From the UHGV virus genome UHGV-0425465: DNA of 41,610 bases. The stretch is one strand, 5' to 3'. Position 1 is the stretch's first letter, and every line of letters starts with the position of its first letter. The DNA comes from a virus. Shown here piece after piece: positions 13,740 to 23,796 of the stretch. Under the pieces are notes generated by a model. The model ran no database searches. It had not been told where the DNA came from and saw only the letters and a list, made by a program, of their open reading frames with translations. The position numbers and the translations under genes were made by a program.

Positions 13740-15534
13740 AATGTTCCTGAAACAGACAATCCTATCAGATGCTCCGCAGAACATGGAGGGACTGAAAATC
13801 GTATATGATGACGTGGCGCCATATGCAAAGGAGCACAGCAGCGTCCAGGTGATTGCCCCAGGGCTACGGCCCCATAAAGGACTATACCCAAGGGAAGGGC
13901 TGTACCCGGGAAGGACCAGGATAAGACAGGAGTTCCCAGACCTGAAGCGGGATGACCTGAAATATCCGGGGTACGCACTGTGCCTTCCGAGGTTTGCATT
14001 GCTGGATGGAAAATACATCAACTTTCCGGATGATGCAGCGGACTACGGCTACATATCGGATGGGATATCAGGGGAAGACTGCCAGCTTGCAAGGTCGGTC
14101 CACTCCACGGGACTCCGGCCTCACGTTGGCATGCATCCCAGTGTGTTCCTATTCCCGCAGCCCAGTGTGGATGAGACAGTAAGCAGTCCGGAACTTACCA
14201 TCCTGTTCAGCCAAAAATTCACAAGTGTAGGCGTGCTGTTGACGTTCAACATGATGTCCGGGGATTATCCCACGCGTTTAAGGATCAGGTGGTATTCAGA
14301 TGGGGAATTGTTATCCGATATGGAATTCCATCCTGATTCCGTGCGCTATTTCTGTAATAACTATGTGCGCCTGTATGATAAGATAGCGATAACGTTTTAT
14401 GAGACATCACGGCCATGGAGGCCGGTATTCATCACCCGGATTGATTATGGGATTTACAGGGATTTTTTCGCGGACGAGATCCTGGAGTCTTCCTGCCTGC
14501 AGGAGGTCAATGCAATCAGTGAGAACATCAGCATCAACACGCTGGATTTTACTGTCCGTACTGAAACGGACATCCCATTTGATTTCCAGAAGAAGCAGAA
14601 GCTGGCACTGTATTTCAATGGACAGCGTATCGGGAACTTTTATTTAAGGAATGGGGCAAGAAAGAACCGGACAGATTACCATATGGACAGCCACGATGCG
14701 GTTGGGATACTGGATGGGAATGAGTTTGCCGGGGGAGTGTATACGGGACAGCGGGCCGGTGATGTGGTTGATGCAATTTTCGAAGGGGAGGATTTCAATT
14801 ACCTGTTGGATGAATCCCTTTCAGATATCCAGTTGACTGGATACATACCTTATACAACGAAACGTAATGCACTTGTGCAGATTGCGTTTGCCATAGGAGC
14901 CGTGGTTGACACAAGTAATTACGATGGGGTATTGATTTATCCACAACAGACAGAGGTGACTGGTGAATTCATGCCATCCGATACATTTGATGGCGTGACA
15001 CTGGAACACAATGACGTGGTGACAGGAATCCGGCTGGCCGTGCATACATACCAGCAGTCAGAAGAGGCAGAGGAACTATATAATGATACGCTTTCCGGTA
15101 CTGCCGAGGTGATATTCCCTGAACCACATCATGGCCTGGCAATCACAGGGGGGACAATCATGCGGAGCGGGGACAATCATGCGGTGATCAATGGGACTGG
15201 GGGTACGGTAGTGATGACTGGTAAAAAGTACACACATCTGACAACTTCCCTCCTGAAAGAGAATCCTGCCATCGTGTTCAATAAAAATGTCAGGGAAGTA
15301 TCAGAGGCCACACTTGTACATCCAGGGAATGCTGCCGAAGTTCTTGACCGGGTATACGGATACTACCAGCGCGCTGAAAATGTGGCTGGTGATGTGCTGC
15401 TGGCGGATAAGGTCCTTGGACAGATGGTGGCGGTTGATACTGGATATGACGGAAGGCGGAATGGGACATTGGAAAGCATAAACTATCAGTTCGGCCTGCG
15501 CGAGATAAGGGCGGAGGTAACGATACATGAGTAA
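13740..15534 (+). CDS. Distal tail / baseplate protein (phage tail family protein)
   Basis: About 598 aa from ATG 13740 (RBS GGAGGCCATAGA ATG); position after tape measure. Confidence 0.55.
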
Positions 15535-15967
15535 ATACGTGGATGCATTGATATTTGACCGTGTGGCGGCTGATGTGCAGCAGATGACGGACAAGGCATA
15601 TATAGATTATCGGGACCTGAACCGGATAGAGTCCGCAATCAAATGGGTATCATATGTCCTTAACCGGTATGGGTATCCCAATAAGACAGAAAACAAACTG
15701 GATTGGAGGCCGGAGGACCGGCGTACGGAAACCGAGATGGGACGGTTGAGGAATAACCTGTCTGCCATCCGGGCAGCCTATTACACGCCGCCCAGTACCC
15801 CGCAGACTCCGGAGAAAATCACATACACGTCCATCTACCAGGCCAATTTCATTGAAAAAATCATATATGACTTGGGAACATTGATTGAGTCATCCTTTCC
15901 AGGACCGCGCCGGTTCGGTTTCCATCTGGGAAGGAGGATATTGGGAAACAGGAGTATAGGGATATGA
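15527..15967 (+). CDS. Hypothetical tail protein
   Basis: 146 aa, overlapping coupling with neighbours. Confidence 0.4.
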   Translation: MSKYVDALIFDRVAADVQQMTDKAYIDYRDLNRIESAIKWVSYVLNRYGYPNKTENKLDWRPEDRRTETEMGRLRNNLSAIRAAYYTPPSTPQTPEKITYTSIYQANFIEKIIYDLGTLIESSFPGPRRFGFHLGRRILGNRSIGI

Positions 15968-16434
15968 GCTTAAAAACGAATTATAAGGATGATAAGTTTG
16001 CAGGCAAGCGTCTGTATAAGATTACTTCCCAGGATGATGGGATTGTCACCCTGGACGATGTGACGCATTATGCGGAAACGGGGGACATATTCTCCGCCCA
16101 GGACATGAACGATACTAATGAGGCTGTCAACCGGATTGACGAGGATGTAGGAATCTTAAAAGGGGAAGTTAAGGTCAACATCCCTGTCTCAGGGTGGAAT
16201 GCCAGTGCACCTTATGTACAGACAATATCCATCCCTGGGATGAGGGGGACATATTCCCCCACACCGGGGATGCTGTATCCGGATGCCATGACAGAGGAAC
16301 AGAAGACACAGATAGATAAGAGTTCGAACATGATAACCAAGCTGGAGACCATTGATGGAGGAATCAGGGTGACCTGTAAATTCAGGAAACCTACTGCAGA
16401 CATGATAATATCACTGAAAGGAGCAAAGTCATGA
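15964..16434 (+). CDS. Hypothetical tail protein
   Basis: 156 aa, in tail operon. Confidence 0.4.
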   Translation: MSLKTNYKDDKFAGKRLYKITSQDDGIVTLDDVTHYAETGDIFSAQDMNDTNEAVNRIDEDVGILKGEVKVNIPVSGWNASAPYVQTISIPGMRGTYSPTPGMLYPDAMTEEQKTQIDKSSNMITKLETIDGGIRVTCKFRKPTADMIISLKGAKS

Positions 16435-16850
16435 ACCTATCATTACCTTTCCGGGGGCAGTCAGTGGATATAAATGGGCTGACTGCGGTACCATCAGATG
16501 TGCGTAAGAACAAGCGTTATATCGGTAACGGCAGCGATGATGAGAAGCTTGGCGCGATGGAACCAATCGCGCCTGTTGAATATGACCTCCCGCTTAACGG
16601 GACATATGACATACCTCCAGGGGAACATATGGGAGGTGATGTGGTACGGCAGGGCATTGCTTCCAGGCCTGGTGAGTATGTCACCCCGGGATCTGGTCAG
16701 ATTGTTGTTGAATGCGCTGGGAAATATATGACGGGTGACATCATCATCCTGGCGGTAGAAAACCTTACCAGTGACAACATAAAATATGGGGTTGTGGTGG
16801 GCGAAGGGGAAGGAGCTGTCACCGGGACATGCCAGGGATTTTTCGATTAA
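16431..16850 (+). CDS. Tail fibre/baseplate-associated protein, short paralog
   Basis: 139 aa; shares a roughly 95-aa homologous domain (…QIVVECAGKYMTGDIIILAVENLTSDNIKYG…) with the next gene. Confidence 0.45.
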   Translation: MNLSLPFRGQSVDINGLTAVPSDVRKNKRYIGNGSDDEKLGAMEPIAPVEYDLPLNGTYDIPPGEHMGGDVVRQGIASRPGEYVTPGSGQIVVECAGKYMTGDIIILAVENLTSDNIKYGVVVGEGEGAVTGTCQGFFD

Positions 16851-16864
16851 TCAGGAGGATCATA

Positions 16865-17767
16865 ATGTCAATCTTATCGTTAAGGAAAAATGGTGGAGGT
16901 GTAGATACGGACCGGCTTACAGCATTACCTGAGGATGTCACGGAAGGTAAGATATTTCTTGGGGCCGGAAGTGATGGCCGGCAGGTAGGTACCATGCCGG
17001 ACCATGGAAGTCCCAAACTGACATTGCCTGTGAATGGGAAACTGGAACTTCCAGCCGGGAAATACAGTGGGGGCCAGGTTACTCAGGCCATAGAAATGAT
17101 GGATGCACAAAGCGTAGGGCCTGGTGCGAAACAGATTGTGATACATACTGCTGGGAAATATATGACAGGGAACATAACCGTAAGGCCAGTCAGGAACCTT
17201 ACCATATCGAACATAAGGAAAAATGCTTATGTCGGTGGTGTAGGGCCTGGGATATGGGAAGGGTATGTTAATGATGACCCACTAACCCCATACCTATATG
17301 GTACATTTTATGGTTCACAGGGCATCACATACATGCGGTATACGACATACCGGCAGGGGACCGGAAAGGTATCCCTTGCACGTGACCATATAGCGGCCAG
17401 TGCAGGGAGCGGACAGACAGTGGCGTTCGTCTTTGACCTTCCCATACGGTTGGACGGTGTGGAATCGCTTTCGGTTGAGATGTCAGGTACAGGGAAGACG
17501 GCAAAGGTCATGGTGTGCCGCAACCGGGTGGAGAACTACATAGAAGAGGCAACCGTGTCAGGATCCACAATAAAGTACAGTTATAATAAGGCGCTGGGAG
17601 ATATCCTCCTTGATGGCTCCATCGGAAGGAGCAGCGCTGAAGGGAATGAGTGGCAGCAGCAGAAAACGTTCGGACTCAGCGGATTGACCGGGAATGCTTA
17701 TTTATACATCGGTTCCTCATCAGCTGTATTTGATTTCAATCTATACTTTGCAAAATTCAACACATAA
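16865..17767 (+). CDS. Tail fibre/baseplate-associated protein, long paralog
   Basis: About 300 aa from ATG 16865 (RBS CAGGAGGATCATA); N-terminal domain paralogous to 16431..16850 (…QIVIHTAGKYMTGNITVRPVRNLTISNIRKN…). Confidence 0.45.
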   Translation: MSILSLRKNGGGVDTDRLTALPEDVTEGKIFLGAGSDGRQVGTMPDHGSPKLTLPVNGKLELPAGKYSGGQVTQAIEMMDAQSVGPGAKQIVIHTAGKYMTGNITVRPVRNLTISNIRKNAYVGGVGPGIWEGYVNDDPLTPYLYGTFYGSQGITYMRYTTYRQGTGKVSLARDHIAASAGSGQTVAFVFDLPIRLDGVESLSVEMSGTGKTAKVMVCRNRVENYIEEATVSGSTIKYSYNKALGDILLDGSIGRSSAEGNEWQQQKTFGLSGLTGNAYLYIGSSSAVFDFNLYFAKFNT

Positions 17768-17777
17768 GGAGGAAGAC

Positions 17778-18377
17778 ATGTCATTAGTAAGTGAATTAAA
17801 GACCATAGCAGATTATAATCCTACAGCCTATGTGAATAATTCGGAACCGGATTTAGATGCGGAACACCTAAACAAAACAGAACAGGCTTTAAAGCGGGTG
17901 ACGGATGCGGCAAATGATGCGATAAACGCACTGAAAGAACTGGAGGAGCAAAAGTTATCCTTAAATGCCATCGTGCAGACGGAGTCCACGGCCACGGATA
18001 AGGTACCGTCCAGTGCATATCTTAAGCAGGCACTTGGTACCATAAATAGCAATTTAGAGTCCAAGGCCAATGCTGATACAGTGTCTGGATTATCCGCAGA
18101 CCTGAACAATGTCAAGGAATCTCTTAGTCCACTCAAAACAAGCCTTGTGGGAGACATTAACAACAATACCGTGGGAGTTGTTAACATAGTTGCATGGGAT
18201 TCTAATACCACCAGTACACCAAAGTCCACAGGAAACACTGCGTACGGCAATGGATTCTGCCTTACGTACAGCCTTGGTGATCAGTGGCTATGCCAATTGG
18301 CAATGGCGGTTGGCGACCCTAACCTATATACCAGATATAGGCGTGATGGCGTTTGGAGTGGCTGGACAACGAAATGA
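17778..18377 (+). CDS. Tail fibre protein (constant N-terminus + C-terminal tip domain, variant A)
   Basis: 199 aa; coiled-coil N-terminus; C-terminal …RDGVWSGWTTK knob-like end; RBS AAGGAGGAAGAC. Confidence 0.6.
   Translation: MSLVSELKTIADYNPTAYVNNSEPDLDAEHLNKTEQALKRVTDAANDAINALKELEEQKLSLNAIVQTESTATDKVPSSAYLKQALGTINSNLESKANADTVSGLSADLNNVKESLSPLKTSLVGDINNNTVGVVNIVAWDSNTTSTPKSTGNTAYGNGFCLTYSLGDQWLCQLAMAVGDPNLYTRYRRDGVWSGWTTK
18044..18057. repeat. Inverted repeat, left copy (AAATAGCAATTTAG) inside the fibre gene; putative inversion crossover site
   Basis: Perfect 14-bp match to the reverse complement of 18834..18847; encodes N-S-N-L in the same codon phase in both ORFs. Confidence 0.6.
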
Positions 18378-18381
18378 TTAT

Positions 18382-18867
18382 TTAAAATTGCGAGTCAGTG
18401 TTAATATGTGCTAACTTAGCATTAGTTTTATTATCATATATCACCAGATATTTTTTATTAGACTCCAAAGACAATCTGTATGGAATATCAGCGTTTGTGA
18501 TAACCTTATCGTTATCCAGATATGCCGTCCCATTATTGTGGATACCAAGGGTATGTGTTTTATCAGGGGACCGTAAAGATGTTTTATTTGTGGACTTGAC
18601 TATATTCTGTACCCAATCAGACCAAATATTGCTGGTTCTGATTCTAACAAATTCATCACCATTGCTTGTGTTAATTGCTGTTATGGTGGCAGTGGAGTCA
18701 TTCATAACGATTGCCTCAAAGGTTCCATAAGACGAAGGGGTTCCGGTTGCGCCGGAACTATAGTATCCAGCATATTTACCAACTGGTAGTGCACCAATGA
18801 TATCAGTTATATTGCCGGACGTTATTTTCATCCCTAAATTGCTATTTTGAATATGAATGAAACCCAC
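18382..18867 (-). CDS. Alternative tail-fibre C-terminal cassette (variant B), probably expressed only after DNA inversion
   Basis: 161 aa minus-strand ORF convergent with the fibre gene. Ends …SNIWSDWVQN (same WS.W knob-like motif). No convincing RBS. Contains the in-frame NSNL-coding 14-bp repeat. Confidence 0.5.
   Translation of the reverse strand: MGFIHIQNSNLGMKITSGNITDIIGALPVGKYAGYYSSGATGTPSSYGTFEAIVMNDSTATITAINTSNGDEFVRIRTSNIWSDWVQNIVKSTNKTSLRSPDKTHTLGIHNNGTAYLDNDKVITNADIPYRLSLESNKKYLVIYDNKTNAKLAHINTDSQF
18834..18847. repeat. Inverted repeat, right copy (CTAAATTGCTATTT) inside the minus-strand cassette
   Basis: Reverse complement of 18044..18057. Confidence 0.6.
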
Positions 18868-18933
18868 AAACCAGGTCCCTAAATGGGGCTTATTTTATTG
18901 CCCGGCAGGCCGCCGGGCGGAAAGGAAAAATCT

Positions 18934-19344
18934 ATGAATGAAAAAATCAGATTAAAAAACGGTAAGGAGTATCCACTGGTTATCGGAGGTACTTCCTCCA
19001 CTCCCACCACTCTGCGGCTTATCTTCCAAACGGCGGAGCCGCTGGAGGACATCGTGGCCGTGTTTACGGATGCGGCAGCCACGGAGCAGATTAAGACTGT
19101 CAACGAGGATGGCAGCACATTGCTGATGTACGATGGCTATACGGTACTGAATGACCCAAAGAGTATTGATGACTACTACCTTATCACACCGGAGCAGTAC
19201 GGGGAGGATGGAACCGTCACCGCCGAGGCCGTATATGGCCGTGTGGCGCTCCTGACGCTCTCACAGCCGGACGTAAAGGCTGCGGTGGAAAAGAATACGG
19301 CTGACATTGATTACGTGGCTATAATGGCCGGTATTGATTTATAG
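18934..19344 (+). CDS. Hypothetical protein (tail/lysis junction)
   Basis: 137 aa from ATG 18934. Confidence 0.4.
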   Translation: MNEKIRLKNGKEYPLVIGGTSSTPTTLRLIFQTAEPLEDIVAVFTDAAATEQIKTVNEDGSTLLMYDGYTVLNDPKSIDDYYLITPEQYGEDGTVTAEAVYGRVALLTLSQPDVKAAVEKNTADIDYVAIMAGIDL

Positions 19345-19355
19345 GAGGTGTGACT

Positions 19356-19490
19356 ATGGATGTAAAAGGACTGGCGCAGAAGTATTACCCAAGATTATGG
19401 GACATTGACCGGCTTAAGGCCCTGGTGGCCGCGGGTAAACTGTCCGAGGCGGATTACAAGGAGATTACCGGAGAGGACTACACAAAGTAA
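19356..19490 (+). CDS. XkdX-family small phage protein
   Basis: 44 aa, MDVKGLAQKYYPRLWDIDRLKALVAAGKLSEADYKEITGEDYTK; RBS TAGGAGGTGTGAC; classic position between fibres and holin. Confidence 0.65.
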   Translation: MDVKGLAQKYYPRLWDIDRLKALVAAGKLSEADYKEITGEDYTK

Positions 19491-19499
19491 GGAGACATC

Positions 19500-19841
19500 A
19501 TGGGTGTGATAGCACAATACATAAGTGTTCACTGGGTGGAGTGGCTGTTTGTAGCCATTTCCACCCTTTTAGGATTTGGGTACCGGCAGATACTCAAAAG
19601 GCAAAAGGAGGAGTCCGTAAAGACGGGGGCCCTCCATGACGGCATGCAGGCTCTTTTAAGGGACCGTATCATACAGACCTATAATCATTATCAGGATAAG
19701 GGATTCTGCCCGATATATGGCAAAGAGAATGTTAAGCGGATGTATGATGCATATCATGTCCTGGGCGGCAATGATGTGGCAACAGAGCTTAAGGACAAGC
19801 TTATGAAGATGCCGGAGGAACTGGCGGAAAGAGAGGAATAG
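19500..19841 (+). CDS. Membrane protein with one N-terminal TM segment (holin-associated / lysis regulator, putative)
   Basis: 113 aa; hydrophobic VEWLFVAISTLLGFGY then charged tail; RBS AAGGAGAC. Confidence 0.45.
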   Translation: MGVIAQYISVHWVEWLFVAISTLLGFGYRQILKRQKEESVKTGALHDGMQALLRDRIIQTYNHYQDKGFCPIYGKENVKRMYDAYHVLGGNDVATELKDKLMKMPEELAEREE

Positions 19842-19844
19842 AGT

Positions 19845-20099
19845 ATGGATTTATCTTTTTTTAGCAATTACGCAGTAGCGGTCATTGTAGGCATTTGCTT
19901 GATTACAGGATACATAGCAAAAAAGTGGGTGAAGGACCTGGACAACAAATACATCCCTACCATGGTGGCTATCCTGGGAGCGGCACTTAACATCTGGATT
20001 GCGAGAAGTGTAAGCCCGGAAATCATCCTGGCCGGGGCCTTTAGTGGTCTTGCAAGTACAGGCCTGCACCAGGCGTTTAAACAGATGATAGAAGGTTAA
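19845..20099 (+). CDS. Holin
   Basis: 84 aa, two predicted TM helices, immediately upstream of endolysin. Confidence 0.7.
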   Translation: MDLSFFSNYAVAVIVGICLITGYIAKKWVKDLDNKYIPTMVAILGAALNIWIARSVSPEIILAGAFSGLASTGLHQAFKQMIEG

Positions 20100-20105
20100 T
20101 CGGAC

Positions 20106-20141
20106 GTTGCGATATCGCAACTTGTGACGTCGCAACTTTTT
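20106..20141 (+). terminator. Palindrome GTTGCGATATCGCAAC plus alternative hairpin GTTGCGA…TCGCAAC followed by TTTTT
   Basis: Perfect 16-bp palindrome 20106..20121; GTCGCAAC 20129..20136 then T-run; alternative pairing possible (attenuator-like). Confidence 0.4.
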
Positions 20142-20143
20142 AT

Positions 20144-20173
20144 GGCCTGGGAGCAGTCCCGGGCCTTTTTTTT
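20144..20173 (+). terminator. Intrinsic terminator (GGCCTGGGA-GCAG-TCCCGGGCC + T8) in the endolysin 5' leader
   Basis: 9-bp stem (one G-U), 4-nt loop, eight T; ends 5 nt before the lysin RBS AAGGAGGT. Confidence 0.6.
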
Positions 20174-20186
20174 AAGGAGGTACGAC

Positions 20187-21029
20187 ATGACAGCATTATT
20201 AAGGAGACAGGCCGTAATCGACAAGTACGCAGAGATTATAGGCCGCAATATATACAGCCAGTCCCTGAGGGACTACTGCTATAAGGCATACAGGGATGGC
20301 AACTATTACAGTGATTGCAGCAGCTCCATCTGCTACGCCTACAAGGAGGCAGGCCAGGGCTTCGGCATCACGAACACGGCTGGGATGTACAACTCTGCCA
20401 AGCTGACCACGGTGGATGCGGACATAGCCCAGGGCATCCCGGATACGTCCAGACTAAGGCCAGGGGACATGCTGCTGTTTGCCGGCACAGATGCCAGCCG
20501 TCCACTGCGGATAGGCCACGTGGAGATGTACTGTGGCAACGGCATCATCTGTGGCCACGGCAGCGGCAGGCCATCCTATAAGGACCTGGTGGCTTACTGT
20601 AAGAGCCGGTACAACTCCTGGGCATCAGGAGGATGGCGTAAGGGGCTGGTATGCGTGCGCAGATACATACAGGACGATATAGCGCAGGAGCCGGAGCAGC
20701 CCAGAAAATCCGGCTGGGAGCAGGGCGCAGATGGGACTTGGAGTTTCTTCCTGGGTAACACCGGGGAGTGTGTCCGCAACAGCTGGTACCTGGACACGGA
20801 CGGCAAGTGGTACTGGTTTGACGGCGCGGGACACATGGTCACCGACACCTGGTATCAGTACAAGGGAGCCTGGTATTATCTGGGGGCTGACGGGGCTATG
20901 GTCCAGGGGCTGCAGGCCAGCGGCGACAACTACTATTACCTGATGCCGGACGGCAAGATGGCCACGGAGCCGGTGACACTGACTCCGGACAAGGACGGGG
21001 CACTGCGCTGGCCCGGGCTGGCGGAGTAA
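20187..21029 (+). CDS. Endolysin: NlpC/P60-family cysteine peptidase with C-terminal cell-wall-binding (choline-binding-like) repeats
   Basis: About 280 aa from ATG 20187; Cys in DCSSSICYAY, His in GHVEMY…GHG; C-terminal repeats GTWSFF…GKWYWF…GAWYYL…NYYYLMPDGKMATE. Confidence 0.75.
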   Translation: MTALLRRQAVIDKYAEIIGRNIYSQSLRDYCYKAYRDGNYYSDCSSSICYAYKEAGQGFGITNTAGMYNSAKLTTVDADIAQGIPDTSRLRPGDMLLFAGTDASRPLRIGHVEMYCGNGIICGHGSGRPSYKDLVAYCKSRYNSWASGGWRKGLVCVRRYIQDDIAQEPEQPRKSGWEQGADGTWSFFLGNTGECVRNSWYLDTDGKWYWFDGAGHMVTDTWYQYKGAWYYLGADGAMVQGLQASGDNYYYLMPDGKMATEPVTLTPDKDGALRWPGLAE

Positions 21030-22371: not shown

Positions 22372-22540
22372 TGGTAAATATTATTTTTATATTAAAATAG
22401 CAATATACAAACATAGGAGGTGCCGCAGCCGGCGCCGGATGAGTTTGAGAAGGTTTGGAAACGGATACAGGATGGAGAGTAAGGAAGAGGCGGGTACCGG
22501 ATGCGACCGGGCCCGCCTGCCTAATTGCATCATCTTTGGA

Positions 22541-22772
22541 GTATCACACGAAGTATCACACGATATGTTCCTTCTATATTAAATACGTTGTATTTTACGG
22601 GTCCGATTCCCGTCAGCAGCTTTAACCACAGCCCTTGTGTTTACTGGAATATCCGGTATTTACAAGGGTTTTTCTTTGCAATTGCGTTAAAAACATGAAT
22701 TATAAATGTATGTAAATGTAACGATTTTTCTGGTCAAGTATCACACGAAAGTCACACGGTATCACACGGATT
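22541..22772. other. Putative attP: arm-type direct repeats (GTATCACACGA/G x5) flanking a core with a tRNA/tmRNA 3'-end-like segment
   Basis: Repeats at 22541..22564 (x2) and 22738..22770 (x3) adjacent to the int 3' end. 22597..22620 ACGGG-TCCGATT-CCCGT-CAGCAGC resembles a T-arm plus acceptor 3' strand. Confidence 0.45.
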
Positions 22773-23796
22773 TTAACTGTTTGAAATGTTCATTGATTTT
22801 CCGGTTCTGCTTAACCGACTCCAGGTCAATGACGTTCCGGTAAACAGTTTTCATCACATTGTCGCTGGCCCATCCGCCGCGCTGGAGTATGTACTGGTCC
22901 GGTATCCCAATTGCATGCATGATGCTCGCTGAGTAGTGCCTGAGGTCATGGAAACGGAAGTGCGGGATATCAATTGTTTTAAGGACTCTCCCGAATCGAT
23001 GGGTTATATAATCCGGATTGCTTTTAACCAATGGTCCCTTGATGTTTTTTATTTTATCAATCACAAAATCCGGAAACTCGACACTACGATAACTTCCATA
23101 AGTTTTAGGCTGTTTTATATACCATTCGCGGTCGGCGCCTTTAACCATGCTCTTGCTAACCTTAATGGTATTCCCGTGAACATCATTGCTGGTCAGTGCG
23201 CAAATTTCACCGCGCCTAAGAGGGCCGAACGCCGCCAACAGAACTGCAATTTCCAATTCTGTTCCCTTGATATGGTTCAATAGCTTTCTTACGTCATCGT
23301 CACTGGGGCAATATAATTCCGCTTTCTTTTTTGCCGGAAGTGTAACTTTGACCCTTAAATCCGGGGCAAACATCTCAAGTGTAACAGATAGCAGCCCGTA
23401 GGCATTGCGTACTGTTTTTGGGCTTACTTTTGCAGCCAGGTCTGATATCCATATCTGGATGGCCGTATTGTCCAGCTCTGGGAGCCGTATGGCCCCAAAT
23501 TTGCCGCTTAAATAGTTCTTGATGATACCTTCATACCCTCTTATAGTTGACGGGCTTAAAACGCCTTTCTTGACTTCCAGATAGCGCTTGGCGGCTTCAT
23601 TGATGCTCAAGTCGTTCATAACTGGGGCGGGTTTATCTTTATTTGCTTTCCACTCAGCCGCAGCCAGTTGGGCCAATTTCTTTGATGCTGCAGTGAAGCT
23701 CTTATAATGTTTCTTCCCACCATCATCCGTATAATCATATACCTGTACCCGGAATTGACCGGATGGAAGCTGGTTCTTTTTCTTCGGTTTAGCCAT
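22762..23796 (-). CDS. int: Tyrosine site-specific integrase
   Basis: 344 aa; N-terminal arm-binding-like domain; C-terminal catalytic region with …HDLRHYSAS… (HxxR) and a downstream Tyr. Confidence 0.85.
   Translation of the reverse strand: MAKPKKKNQLPSGQFRVQVYDYTDDGGKKHYKSFTAASKKLAQLAAAEWKANKDKPAPVMNDLSINEAAKRYLEVKKGVLSPSTIRGYEGIIKNYLSGKFGAIRLPELDNTAIQIWISDLAAKVSPKTVRNAYGLLSVTLEMFAPDLRVKVTLPAKKKAELYCPSDDDVRKLLNHIKGTELEIAVLLAAFGPLRRGEICALTSNDVHGNTIKVSKSMVKGADREWYIKQPKTYGSYRSVEFPDFVIDKIKNIKGPLVKSNPDYITHRFGRVLKTIDIPHFRFHDLRHYSASIMHAIGIPDQYILQRGGWASDNVMKTVYRNVIDLESVKQNRKINEHFKQLKSV

Follow-up and report, generated by a model that had tools for sequence, protein, structure and literature searches.

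The host range of gut phages is usually framed in terms of point mutation, diversity-generating retroelements (DGRs) and a few classical invertible segments. Tyrosine-recombinase shufflons of the receptor-binding protein (RBP) are known from temperate gut phages as Rin in Bifidobacterium and Eggerthella (PMC6109161, Mavrich et al. 2018; PMC8778435), and a BV01-like tail-fibre shufflon is also known in Phocaeicola vulgatus (PMC13596623, 2026 preprint). A second inverted locus was described in the tRNA-Met Bifidobacterium prophages 689b-1 and Bb423phi2, in which an inversion of ~500 bp at an 8-bp site exchanges a structural gene's 3' end with a small neighbouring gene; no recombinase flanks that locus, and an invertase supplied in trans has been proposed (PMC6109161). 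Here we analyse positions 18044-18847 of the virus genome UHGV-0425465, the whole stretch of which, 41,610 nucleotides, is called the window below. An earlier note on this DNA had read the region as a switch between two tail-fibre tips by inversion. We consider it probable that the region is the minimal two-cassette unit of a Rin-like tyrosine-recombinase shufflon diversifying the fibre tip, and this assessment extends to the full explanation, including an enzyme acting in trans.

The window is the complete genome of a temperate siphovirus-like phage with a small terminase, an SPP1-type portal, a capsid and a 928-amino-acid (aa) tape measure, and it also encodes tail genes, a holin, a lysin, an integrase and replication genes. 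The tail-fibre gene (17778..18377, plus strand) has a strong ribosome-binding site (RBS), AAGGAGG at 17767-17773, 5 nt ahead of its ATG, and relatives of its product carry a precomputed match to PF27308, named XkdV_N. The constant, XkdV_N-like N-terminal part (17778..18043, plus strand, residues 1-88) runs into the left crossover site, AAATAGCAATTTAG (18044..18057, plus strand), which codes for (I)NSNL, residues 89-93, in a predicted helical stalk. It is followed by the expressed tip, cassette A (18058..18377, plus strand; ESKANADTV...GVWSGWTTK), predicted to form a knob-like beta domain. A second tip, cassette B (18382..18833, minus strand; GMKITSGNIT...INTDSQF), is silent and inverted, and in frame with it stands the right crossover site (18834..18847, minus strand), the exact reverse complement of the left one. 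The two 14-bp arms, whose identity the earlier note had reported correctly, are separated by 776 nt, and both read N-S-N-L in the phase of their own open reading frame (ORF), the fibre gene on one strand and a minus-strand ORF (18382..18867) on the other. When 18058..18833 was inverted in silico, fibre residues 1-93 were fused in frame to GMKITSGNIT..., as had been predicted, giving a 243-aa product; a junction of the inverted form would join ...GGTACCATAAATAGCAATTTAGGGATGAAAAT... to ...CATATTCAAAATAGCAATTTAGAGTCCAAGGC....

Neither the GTG nor the internal ATG of the minus-strand ORF is preceded by a Shine-Dalgarno sequence, in agreement with the earlier view that this ORF has no credible RBS, and the minus strand ahead of it contains no promoter-like site. 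The short open stretch that begins at the GTG, MGFIHIQ (18848..18867, minus strand), is not a real gene start. The GFIHIQ flank is kept beside unrelated silent cassettes in five loci from other genomes, which are designated by L numbers throughout (L001, L016, L017, L024 and L038).

The crossover site recurs in other phages. Its core, AATAGCAATTTA, was found in 49 distinct contexts in related phages, a set that includes loci retrieved via similarity of the fibre protein and not via the site. Over these contexts TAGCAATTT is essentially invariant, with near 2 bits per position, and the information in the flanks is near zero; the consensus of the site is AA(A/G)TAGCAATTTAG. In the window and in >40 loci AATAGCAATTTA heads every cassette in frame and is inverted for the silent cassettes. 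The site is nearly a 16-bp palindrome, CTAAATAG followed by CAATTTAG, and owes its asymmetry to the AGCA centre only; a core site for a tyrosine recombinase would be built in this way, as a near-palindrome with an asymmetric centre. Of the 12-mer, the final base (A, T or G) moves with the cassette, while the base before TAGC stays with the flank, and the crossover can therefore be placed within about TAGCAATTT. The repeat is more than chance because it is conserved in other genomes, not because of its length, and the earlier argument for selection on the DNA site itself holds on the strength of the 49 contexts, though not from repeat length alone. That the sites are genuine site-specific recombination joints seems to us very likely.

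Comparisons with close relatives placed the breakpoints at the sites. The loci L017 to L022 match the window at 99.3% identity from 13778 to 18057, and L024 matches it at 99.5% up to base 18057; in both comparisons no similarity follows until 18831-18836, where it returns. Against 99%-identical phages, homology ends exactly at 18055-18057. In two other loci, L003 and L004, the match to the window is confined to 18043-18383, which is cassette A as a discrete module. A site-to-site unit of 869 bp is 100% identical in L001, L002 and L003; through this unit, L001 and L002 align at an overall identity of only 79%, and outside it L003 has nothing in common with them.

The contents of the sites vary accordingly from phage to phage. 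One N-terminus (MSLVSELK...GTINSNL, 97-100% identical) carries at least 14 unrelated C-termini after NSN(L/F), including an H-type lectin (H_lectin; protein P0038), and B-type tips follow NSNL on four other N-termini. Expressed B-type cassettes after NSNL are seen in P0001, P0004, L048 and L056. Single cassettes were found in both positions. Cassette D is expressed in L023, whereas L017 and L036 have it in silent form, on backbones that are 98.7-99.6% identical; ~70% of the L023 segment corresponds to the segment of L017 in inverted form. A variant of cassette A is silent in L060 and expressed in L053, and the cassettes J, K, A', SHKANAADY and SQKANSSDL also occur both expressed and silent in different phages. 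The silent and orphan cassettes are intact, with ratios of nonsynonymous to synonymous substitution rates (dN/dS) of 0.15 for B, measured against its copy in L025, and 0.09-0.27 for others; judged by these sequence comparisons, they are under purifying selection. The arrangement proposed earlier is thus well supported by other genomes: a constant N-terminus meets an expressed tip at a crossover site, and a silent tip lies inverted behind a second site. The analogy with shufflons stands by the same comparison.

Orphan two-cassette units, with no fibre N-terminus on either side, are present in L003 (953-1820), L004 (5447-6004), L025 (2986-3892) and 12 similar contigs. One such unit neighbours a host 3-dehydroquinate-dehydratase-like gene, another is 1 kb away from an integrase, and a third is placed between the large terminase with a regulator and the portal gene. 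A three-site arrangement was observed in L048 (781-1937), where the silent strand reads two tandem cassettes as one 216-aa ORF (P0106) in the order M-type, GNSNL, C-type; in M cassettes elsewhere, the position of this internal site is taken by a site-like AATAGCATTTTT, close to the cassette's end. Within cassette B, the sub-domain KTSLRSPDKTHTLGIHNNGTAYLDNDKVITN (18484-18594 in the window) has 86% DNA identity, in the opposite orientation, to L017 4298-4408, which is part of the expressed cassette C of that sister phage. The cassettes are, as far as such alignments can tell, mosaics of shared sub-domains, and these could permit the replacement of single cassettes by homologous crossover.

A search of related phages for the repeat and for a linked invertase recovered both, the second as a recombinase residing in arrays. 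Three viral contigs of 98-157 kb (L010, L011 and L012) carry 10-14 copies of the site in both orientations, each heading a small cassette, and in the middle of the array encode a 331-aa Xer-like tyrosine recombinase with matches to Pfam Phage_integrase and SAM_4/SAM_1 and to the NCBIfam XerA/C/D models. Over 4779 and 2902 nt L010 and L011 are 100% identical; what distinguishes them is a cassette of 685 bp, bounded by sites, which has changed both place and orientation. In L011 it is silent, and L010 carries it as a fusion with the fibre N-terminus. As read from the two contigs, this rearrangement is direct evidence that the sites recombine. The arrays are connected to units of the kind found in the window by L006, which has two cassettes in a 658-bp site-to-site unit; this unit shares 98.2% identity with one in the L011 array. 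The right flank of L006 matches that of the window at 85%, and no recombinase lies within its 8.2 kb; L013 and L009 carry the same unit at 99.7-99.8%. While the earlier note had left the responsible enzyme open, a family can now be proposed, the Xer-like tyrosine invertases within same-site arrays of other phages; it remains the case that the enzyme is absent from the window.

The family of the array recombinase recurs beside phage tail genes elsewhere. In an Erysipelotrichaceae prophage (L096), GTTAAATAGCAATTTAA, which has the same core, forms a 22-nt inverted repeat. One of its arms falls within a fibre gene, at ...ALNSNL...; the second arm precedes, by 95 nt, a gene that encodes a 37%-identical recombinase. 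In this locus (L096 6788-10828), the 2.7 kb between the two sites hold the distal part of a fibre gene of 419 aa together with a reverse transcriptase that has the DGR-type motif PIGNYCSQ. The Xer-like recombinase is encoded just outside, and the one fibre locus may be served by two diversification systems. A 42%-identical recombinase lies among repeated AAATAGCGGG sites in L042 and L043 (5000-11000; podovirus-like, with a P22-type portal). These sites have the form (T)AAAATAGCGGG(C), small genes are rearranged between the two contigs, and several of them lie to one side of the recombinase in one contig and to the other side in its partner. This has the appearance of a related shufflon that works on a different site, with the AAATAGC half in common.

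The two-cassette unit in the window is compact. Cassettes A and B are the only two in the segment and lie tail to tail, 4 nt apart, and the segment contains no fibre-assembly (chaperone) gene. At the convergent ends (18375-18384 in the window, with equivalents in 15 loci) 0-15 nt separate the stop codons, and the junction often has the form TAA/TCA (TAATCA) or TGA-TTAT-TTA (TGATTA types), which are reverse complements of each other; the stops abut or overlap. The unit is packed in such a way that it reads the same after inversion. A third recombination site between the cassettes was considered and rejected, as the position shows only abutting or overlapping stops and no conserved motif. Cassette B has a G+C content (GC) of 37.8%, compared with 48.2% for the genome, a composition that fits import from a lower-GC pool.

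Searches of Pfam, PHROGs and NCBIfam gave no family for cassette A or B, and structures were predicted for both. In the AlphaFold2 (AF2) model of the fibre, long helices extend over residues 28-120, with NSNL (90-93) inside the helix of residues 79-99. Both cassettes were modelled as beta knob domains: cassette A as a C-terminal beta knob with a predicted local distance difference test score (pLDDT) of ~90 and a weak structural match to the R2 pyocin fibre 6ct8, and cassette B with a pLDDT of 80 overall and above 90 in a beta domain of residues 10-80, its weak matches being to knob and receptor-binding proteins of phages. The matches of the two models, to the R2 pyocin fibre, phi812 baseplate proteins and phage K gp144, are weak and have weak E-values; the models are consistent with receptor-binding tips. 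The earlier statement that both tips end in W-S-x-W is correct for cassette A, which ends in GVWSGWTTK and a stop codon, whereas in cassette B the motif is internal: NIWSDWVQ stands near residue 80 of 154, where a first beta domain closes, with ~70 further residues behind it.

Immediately downstream of the unit, outside the invertible segment, lies a conserved gene of 136 aa (18934..19344, plus strand; phrog_12931, function unknown), followed by the XkdX, holin and lysin genes. The same phrog_12931 gene also follows the right site in L017, L021, L024 and L035. Two hairpins were noticed between the right site and this gene (18873-18918), AGGTCCC-TAAAT-GGGGCTT followed by ATTTTATT, and the GC-rich GCCCGGC-AGGCC-GCCGGGC; whichever way the segment faces, they might stop read-through out of the fibre gene.

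Several findings weigh against an invertible segment in this phage. The 14-bp repeat is not significant on its own: exact 14-mer inverted pairs with arms 50-1500 nt apart arose in 39 of 300 dinucleotide-preserving shuffles of the window (13%), although in the real window it is the only one. The predicted fusion of the N-terminus with cassette B was absent from a search of 5.8 billion proteins, which gave no near-identical hit along its full length and returned only B-type cassettes on other N-termini. Only one further copy of this phage was found, L035; it matches the window at 100% over 5 kb and is oriented in the same way. The sample SRR9701178 includes the 100%-identical contig, which corresponds to 15382-20415 of the window. 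Among ~20 arrangements there was no reciprocal pair of the kind X/Y and Y/X, and independent contigs of one pair agree in orientation (3 for A/F, 4 for J/M and 4 for C/D). Finally, no invertase was found in the window, and the contigs bearing the arrays have a GC of 35%, compared with 48% in the window, so that the array-bearing phages probably infect other hosts. On the other side, NCBI assigns close relatives of the fibre protein to Enterocloster by name, and the fibre protein P0043 is carried by 374 contigs, one of them 1.6 Mb long. The sole host-side lead, which counts in favour of an enzyme in trans, comes from an Enterocloster metagenome-assembled genome, in which a truncated, 58%-identical fragment of the recombinase family (L088) lies beside lysis genes on a 2.6-kb contig that ends before any array; extension of this fragment yielded only truncated homologues on contigs of at most 3.5 kb.

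Since the replicate contigs of a cassette pair do not differ in orientation, flipping probably happens seldom or depends on an enzyme supplied in trans. Further scans were made for the inverted form and for additional arrangements. The two recombinant junctions were absent from IMG/VR, which says little, since cassette B has no relative of any kind there; scans of IMG/VR with left-flank and right-flank patterns gave no further contigs, and a scan of one metagenome gave 9 loci with new pairs and no reciprocal pair. Some contigs end at a crossover site or within 45 nt of one (the ends of L023 and L036 and the starts of L052 and L054), as expected from branching of the assembly graph at these points, and this could reflect co-existing variants and not flipping. 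The claim of a switch by inversion stands as regards the architecture, but inversion of the segment has never been seen in this phage lineage, and we are inclined to doubt, without great conviction, that this phage flips at an appreciable rate.

These observations lend some weight to a reading in which the sites are only joints for exchange between phages, no inversion takes place in situ, and the silent cassette is a passenger that becomes useful after transfer. The exchange would proceed by relaxed homologous or single-strand-annealing recombination, for which the Gp157 / AAA_24 / DUF669 module of the window would be available, or through the recombinase of another phage. Whole units and single cassettes clearly move between unrelated backbones, units devoid of a fibre N-terminus exist in L003, L004 and L025, and the window does encode a Sipho_Gp157 / AAA_24 recombination module; the fixed orientation among replicate contigs and the lack of a reciprocal pair are also what such a process would leave behind. 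However, a promoterless in-frame cassette that lies tail to tail with an expressed one and is headed by an inverted site would be useless unless it can be inverted, and the silent cassettes show purifying selection. The breakpoints, moreover, fall exactly at the 14-bp site and are not spread through the long homologous flanks, and the array-bearing relatives display true in-place rearrangement and a dedicated recombinase. Exchange without inversion appears unlikely to us as the whole explanation.

If the segment is inverted, the enzyme could in principle be the phage's own. We scanned every window ORF of at least 180 aa for recombinases. The tyrosine integrase (22762..23796, minus strand; Pfam Phage_integrase, phrog_1) is the sole one, and no Resolvase or Recombinase domain is present among these ORFs, confirming the earlier observation that the window has no serine invertase. 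Seed sequences of Hin and gamma-delta resolvase gave no phmmer match in the window or the loci, and a profile of the array recombinase built from 70 members gave no match in the window, the integrase included. Nor is there a reverse transcriptase of a DGR in the window; a DGR-type one was found only in the unrelated locus L096.

The earlier note had suggested that the integrase might moonlight as the invertase. In addition to its being the only recombinase of the window, the suggestion can draw on L002, which has both a 67%-identical integrase and the switch, and on a partial copy of the site, AAATAGCAATATAC, at 22395-22408 (plus strand), ~350 nt from the integrase gene, which matches the fibre site at 12 of 14 positions and the core at 11 of 12. 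This copy is altered in the otherwise invariant TTT and lies within an AT-rich, promoter-like stretch, and 0.4 such matches are expected in the whole window. We rejected it as a third site or a link to the integrase and regard it as a probable chance match. The attachment-like (att-like) region beside the integrase gene holds GTATCACACG-like repeats, which have no similarity to the fibre site, and L001, which is 98.8% identical through the fibre and has identical sites, encodes an integrase of a different type. Because of these two findings a moonlighting integrase is unlikely, and the failure of the array-recombinase profile to match it points the same way; we consider an inversion catalysed by this integrase very improbable. 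The region itself may be described further. Direct repeats resembling GTATCACACG at 22541-22566 and 22737-22770 flank ~170 bp that hold ACGGGTCCGATTCCCGTCAGCAGC, which resembles a tRNA's T-arm and acceptor 3' end and contains a T-arm-like hairpin; ARAGORN found no complete tRNA in the window. The region 22540-22770 is probably the phage attachment site (attP), with arm-type integrase sites and a tRNA-derived core.

A reading in which the repeat arose by chance, and the minus-strand ORF is either spurious or a gene in its own right, might be argued from the shuffled sequences and from the lack of a Pfam or NCBIfam match for either ORF, but it is effectively refuted by the 49 conserved contexts, the breakpoints at the sites, the expression of B-type cassettes after NSNL elsewhere and the minus-strand ORF's want of both promoter and RBS.

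The explanation that we favour is thus a two-cassette shufflon unit with its enzyme in trans. The constant stalk meets the crossover site at N-S-N-L, with cassette A expressed and cassette B silent behind the inverted site; recombination between the two sites would invert 18058-18833, joining the stalk to B and silencing A. The enzyme would most likely be an Xer-like tyrosine invertase of the family found inside the multi-cassette, same-site arrays of other phages. It would have to come in trans, because this phage encodes none, and inversion is therefore probably rare or conditional. Supply of the invertase by a co-resident prophage or by the host is plausible, and the host range of this phage, if the alternative tips alter it, probably changes only with such outside help. 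The same sites also act as joints that pass whole units and single cassettes between phages, creating a shared pool of tips.

A wider version of this scheme can be offered tentatively. Two-cassette units might be mobile modules with a universal site, and the invertases that some phages encode might shuffle their own arrays, act in trans on phages of the same cell that lack an invertase, and move units between unrelated phages, including into positions outside fibre genes. The outcome would be an integron-like pool of host-range determinants at the level of the community, shared by phages of Lachnospiraceae and Erysipelotrichaceae. Independently of this, one short DNA site ties >14 alternative receptor-binding tips to one Enterocloster phage backbone and links that backbone to recombinase-bearing, multi-cassette arrays in other phages. 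If flipping or exchange in trans is real, the host range of a temperate phage depends on the other prophages in the same cell, which bears on the prediction of hosts from sequence and on the engineering of tips at a natural, structurally tolerant joint; the site and the enzyme family form a concrete candidate pair for experiment.

Among described systems, the classical invertible fibre segments Mu G, P1 C, e14 P and p15B Min have a constant fibre part and variable parts chosen by inversion, and in them this controls host range (PMC6109161, together with established knowledge). The Gin, Cin, Pin and Min systems employ serine invertases with ~26-bp sites and a Fis-dependent enhancer, none of which is found here; in those systems the invertase gene adjoins the segment and a fibre-assembly gene lies inside it, and the window has neither. 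The locus resembles the shufflon of R64 and IncI1 plasmids (Rci, PilV) in that the latter uses a tyrosine recombinase and short asymmetric sites placed in frame at the start of the C-terminal segments, with R64 Rci recombining inverted sites only. Unlike the phage fibre studied here, the R64 system diversifies a conjugative-pilus adhesin and has its recombinase beside the array. The R64 site is the 19-bp sfx, which differs from the site in the window. The BV01-like shufflon shares with our locus a temperate gut phage and a short directional motif between cassettes at the distal end of a tail-fibre gene; it has three cassettes, a flanking recombinase, the motif TGGGAGAACT and a Bacteroidota host, and all of its configurations have been seen in reads (PMC13596623).

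As in Rin, a constant N-terminal RBP segment is combined with alternative C-terminal cassettes, both in the window and in its relatives, and a short asymmetric site, the 11-bp rix in Rin, precedes each cassette. Both systems belong to temperate gut phages, with some cassettes being H-type lectins (here P0038). The Rin invertase is an Xer-like tyrosine recombinase without an arm-binding domain, to which the recombinase of the L011 type can be likened by description. The two systems differ in their sites, TTCCCTAACCC in Rin and AATAGCAATTTA here, and in their hosts, Actinobacteria and Lachnospiraceae, respectively. Rin loci also have several cassettes and an adjacent rin gene, whereas the window has two cassettes and no invertase; the dedicated invertase beside or inside the array, which helps to define a full Rin-type locus, is missing from the window and present in the same-site relatives L010-L012 and L096.

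In this last respect the window resembles the locus of 689b-1 and Bb423phi2, which likewise has two alternative gene ends, a short inverted site and no invertase in the element. That locus has a different site and proteins of unknown function, and its inversion was inferred from two genomes of opposite orientation, a situation of which we found no example here. A blastn search of 16800-19400 against 50,697 GenBank phage records gave no match, and we found no description of the site, of the arrays with this recombinase family or of this group of Lachnospiraceae phages in the literature searched, the coverage of which was incomplete. Unlike the site of 689b-1 and Bb423phi2, the site in the window is shared with invertase-bearing arrays, which points to the family of the enzyme; what is new here is a two-cassette unit that lacks an invertase of its own and shares its crossover site, and whole units, with the invertase-bearing arrays of other phages.

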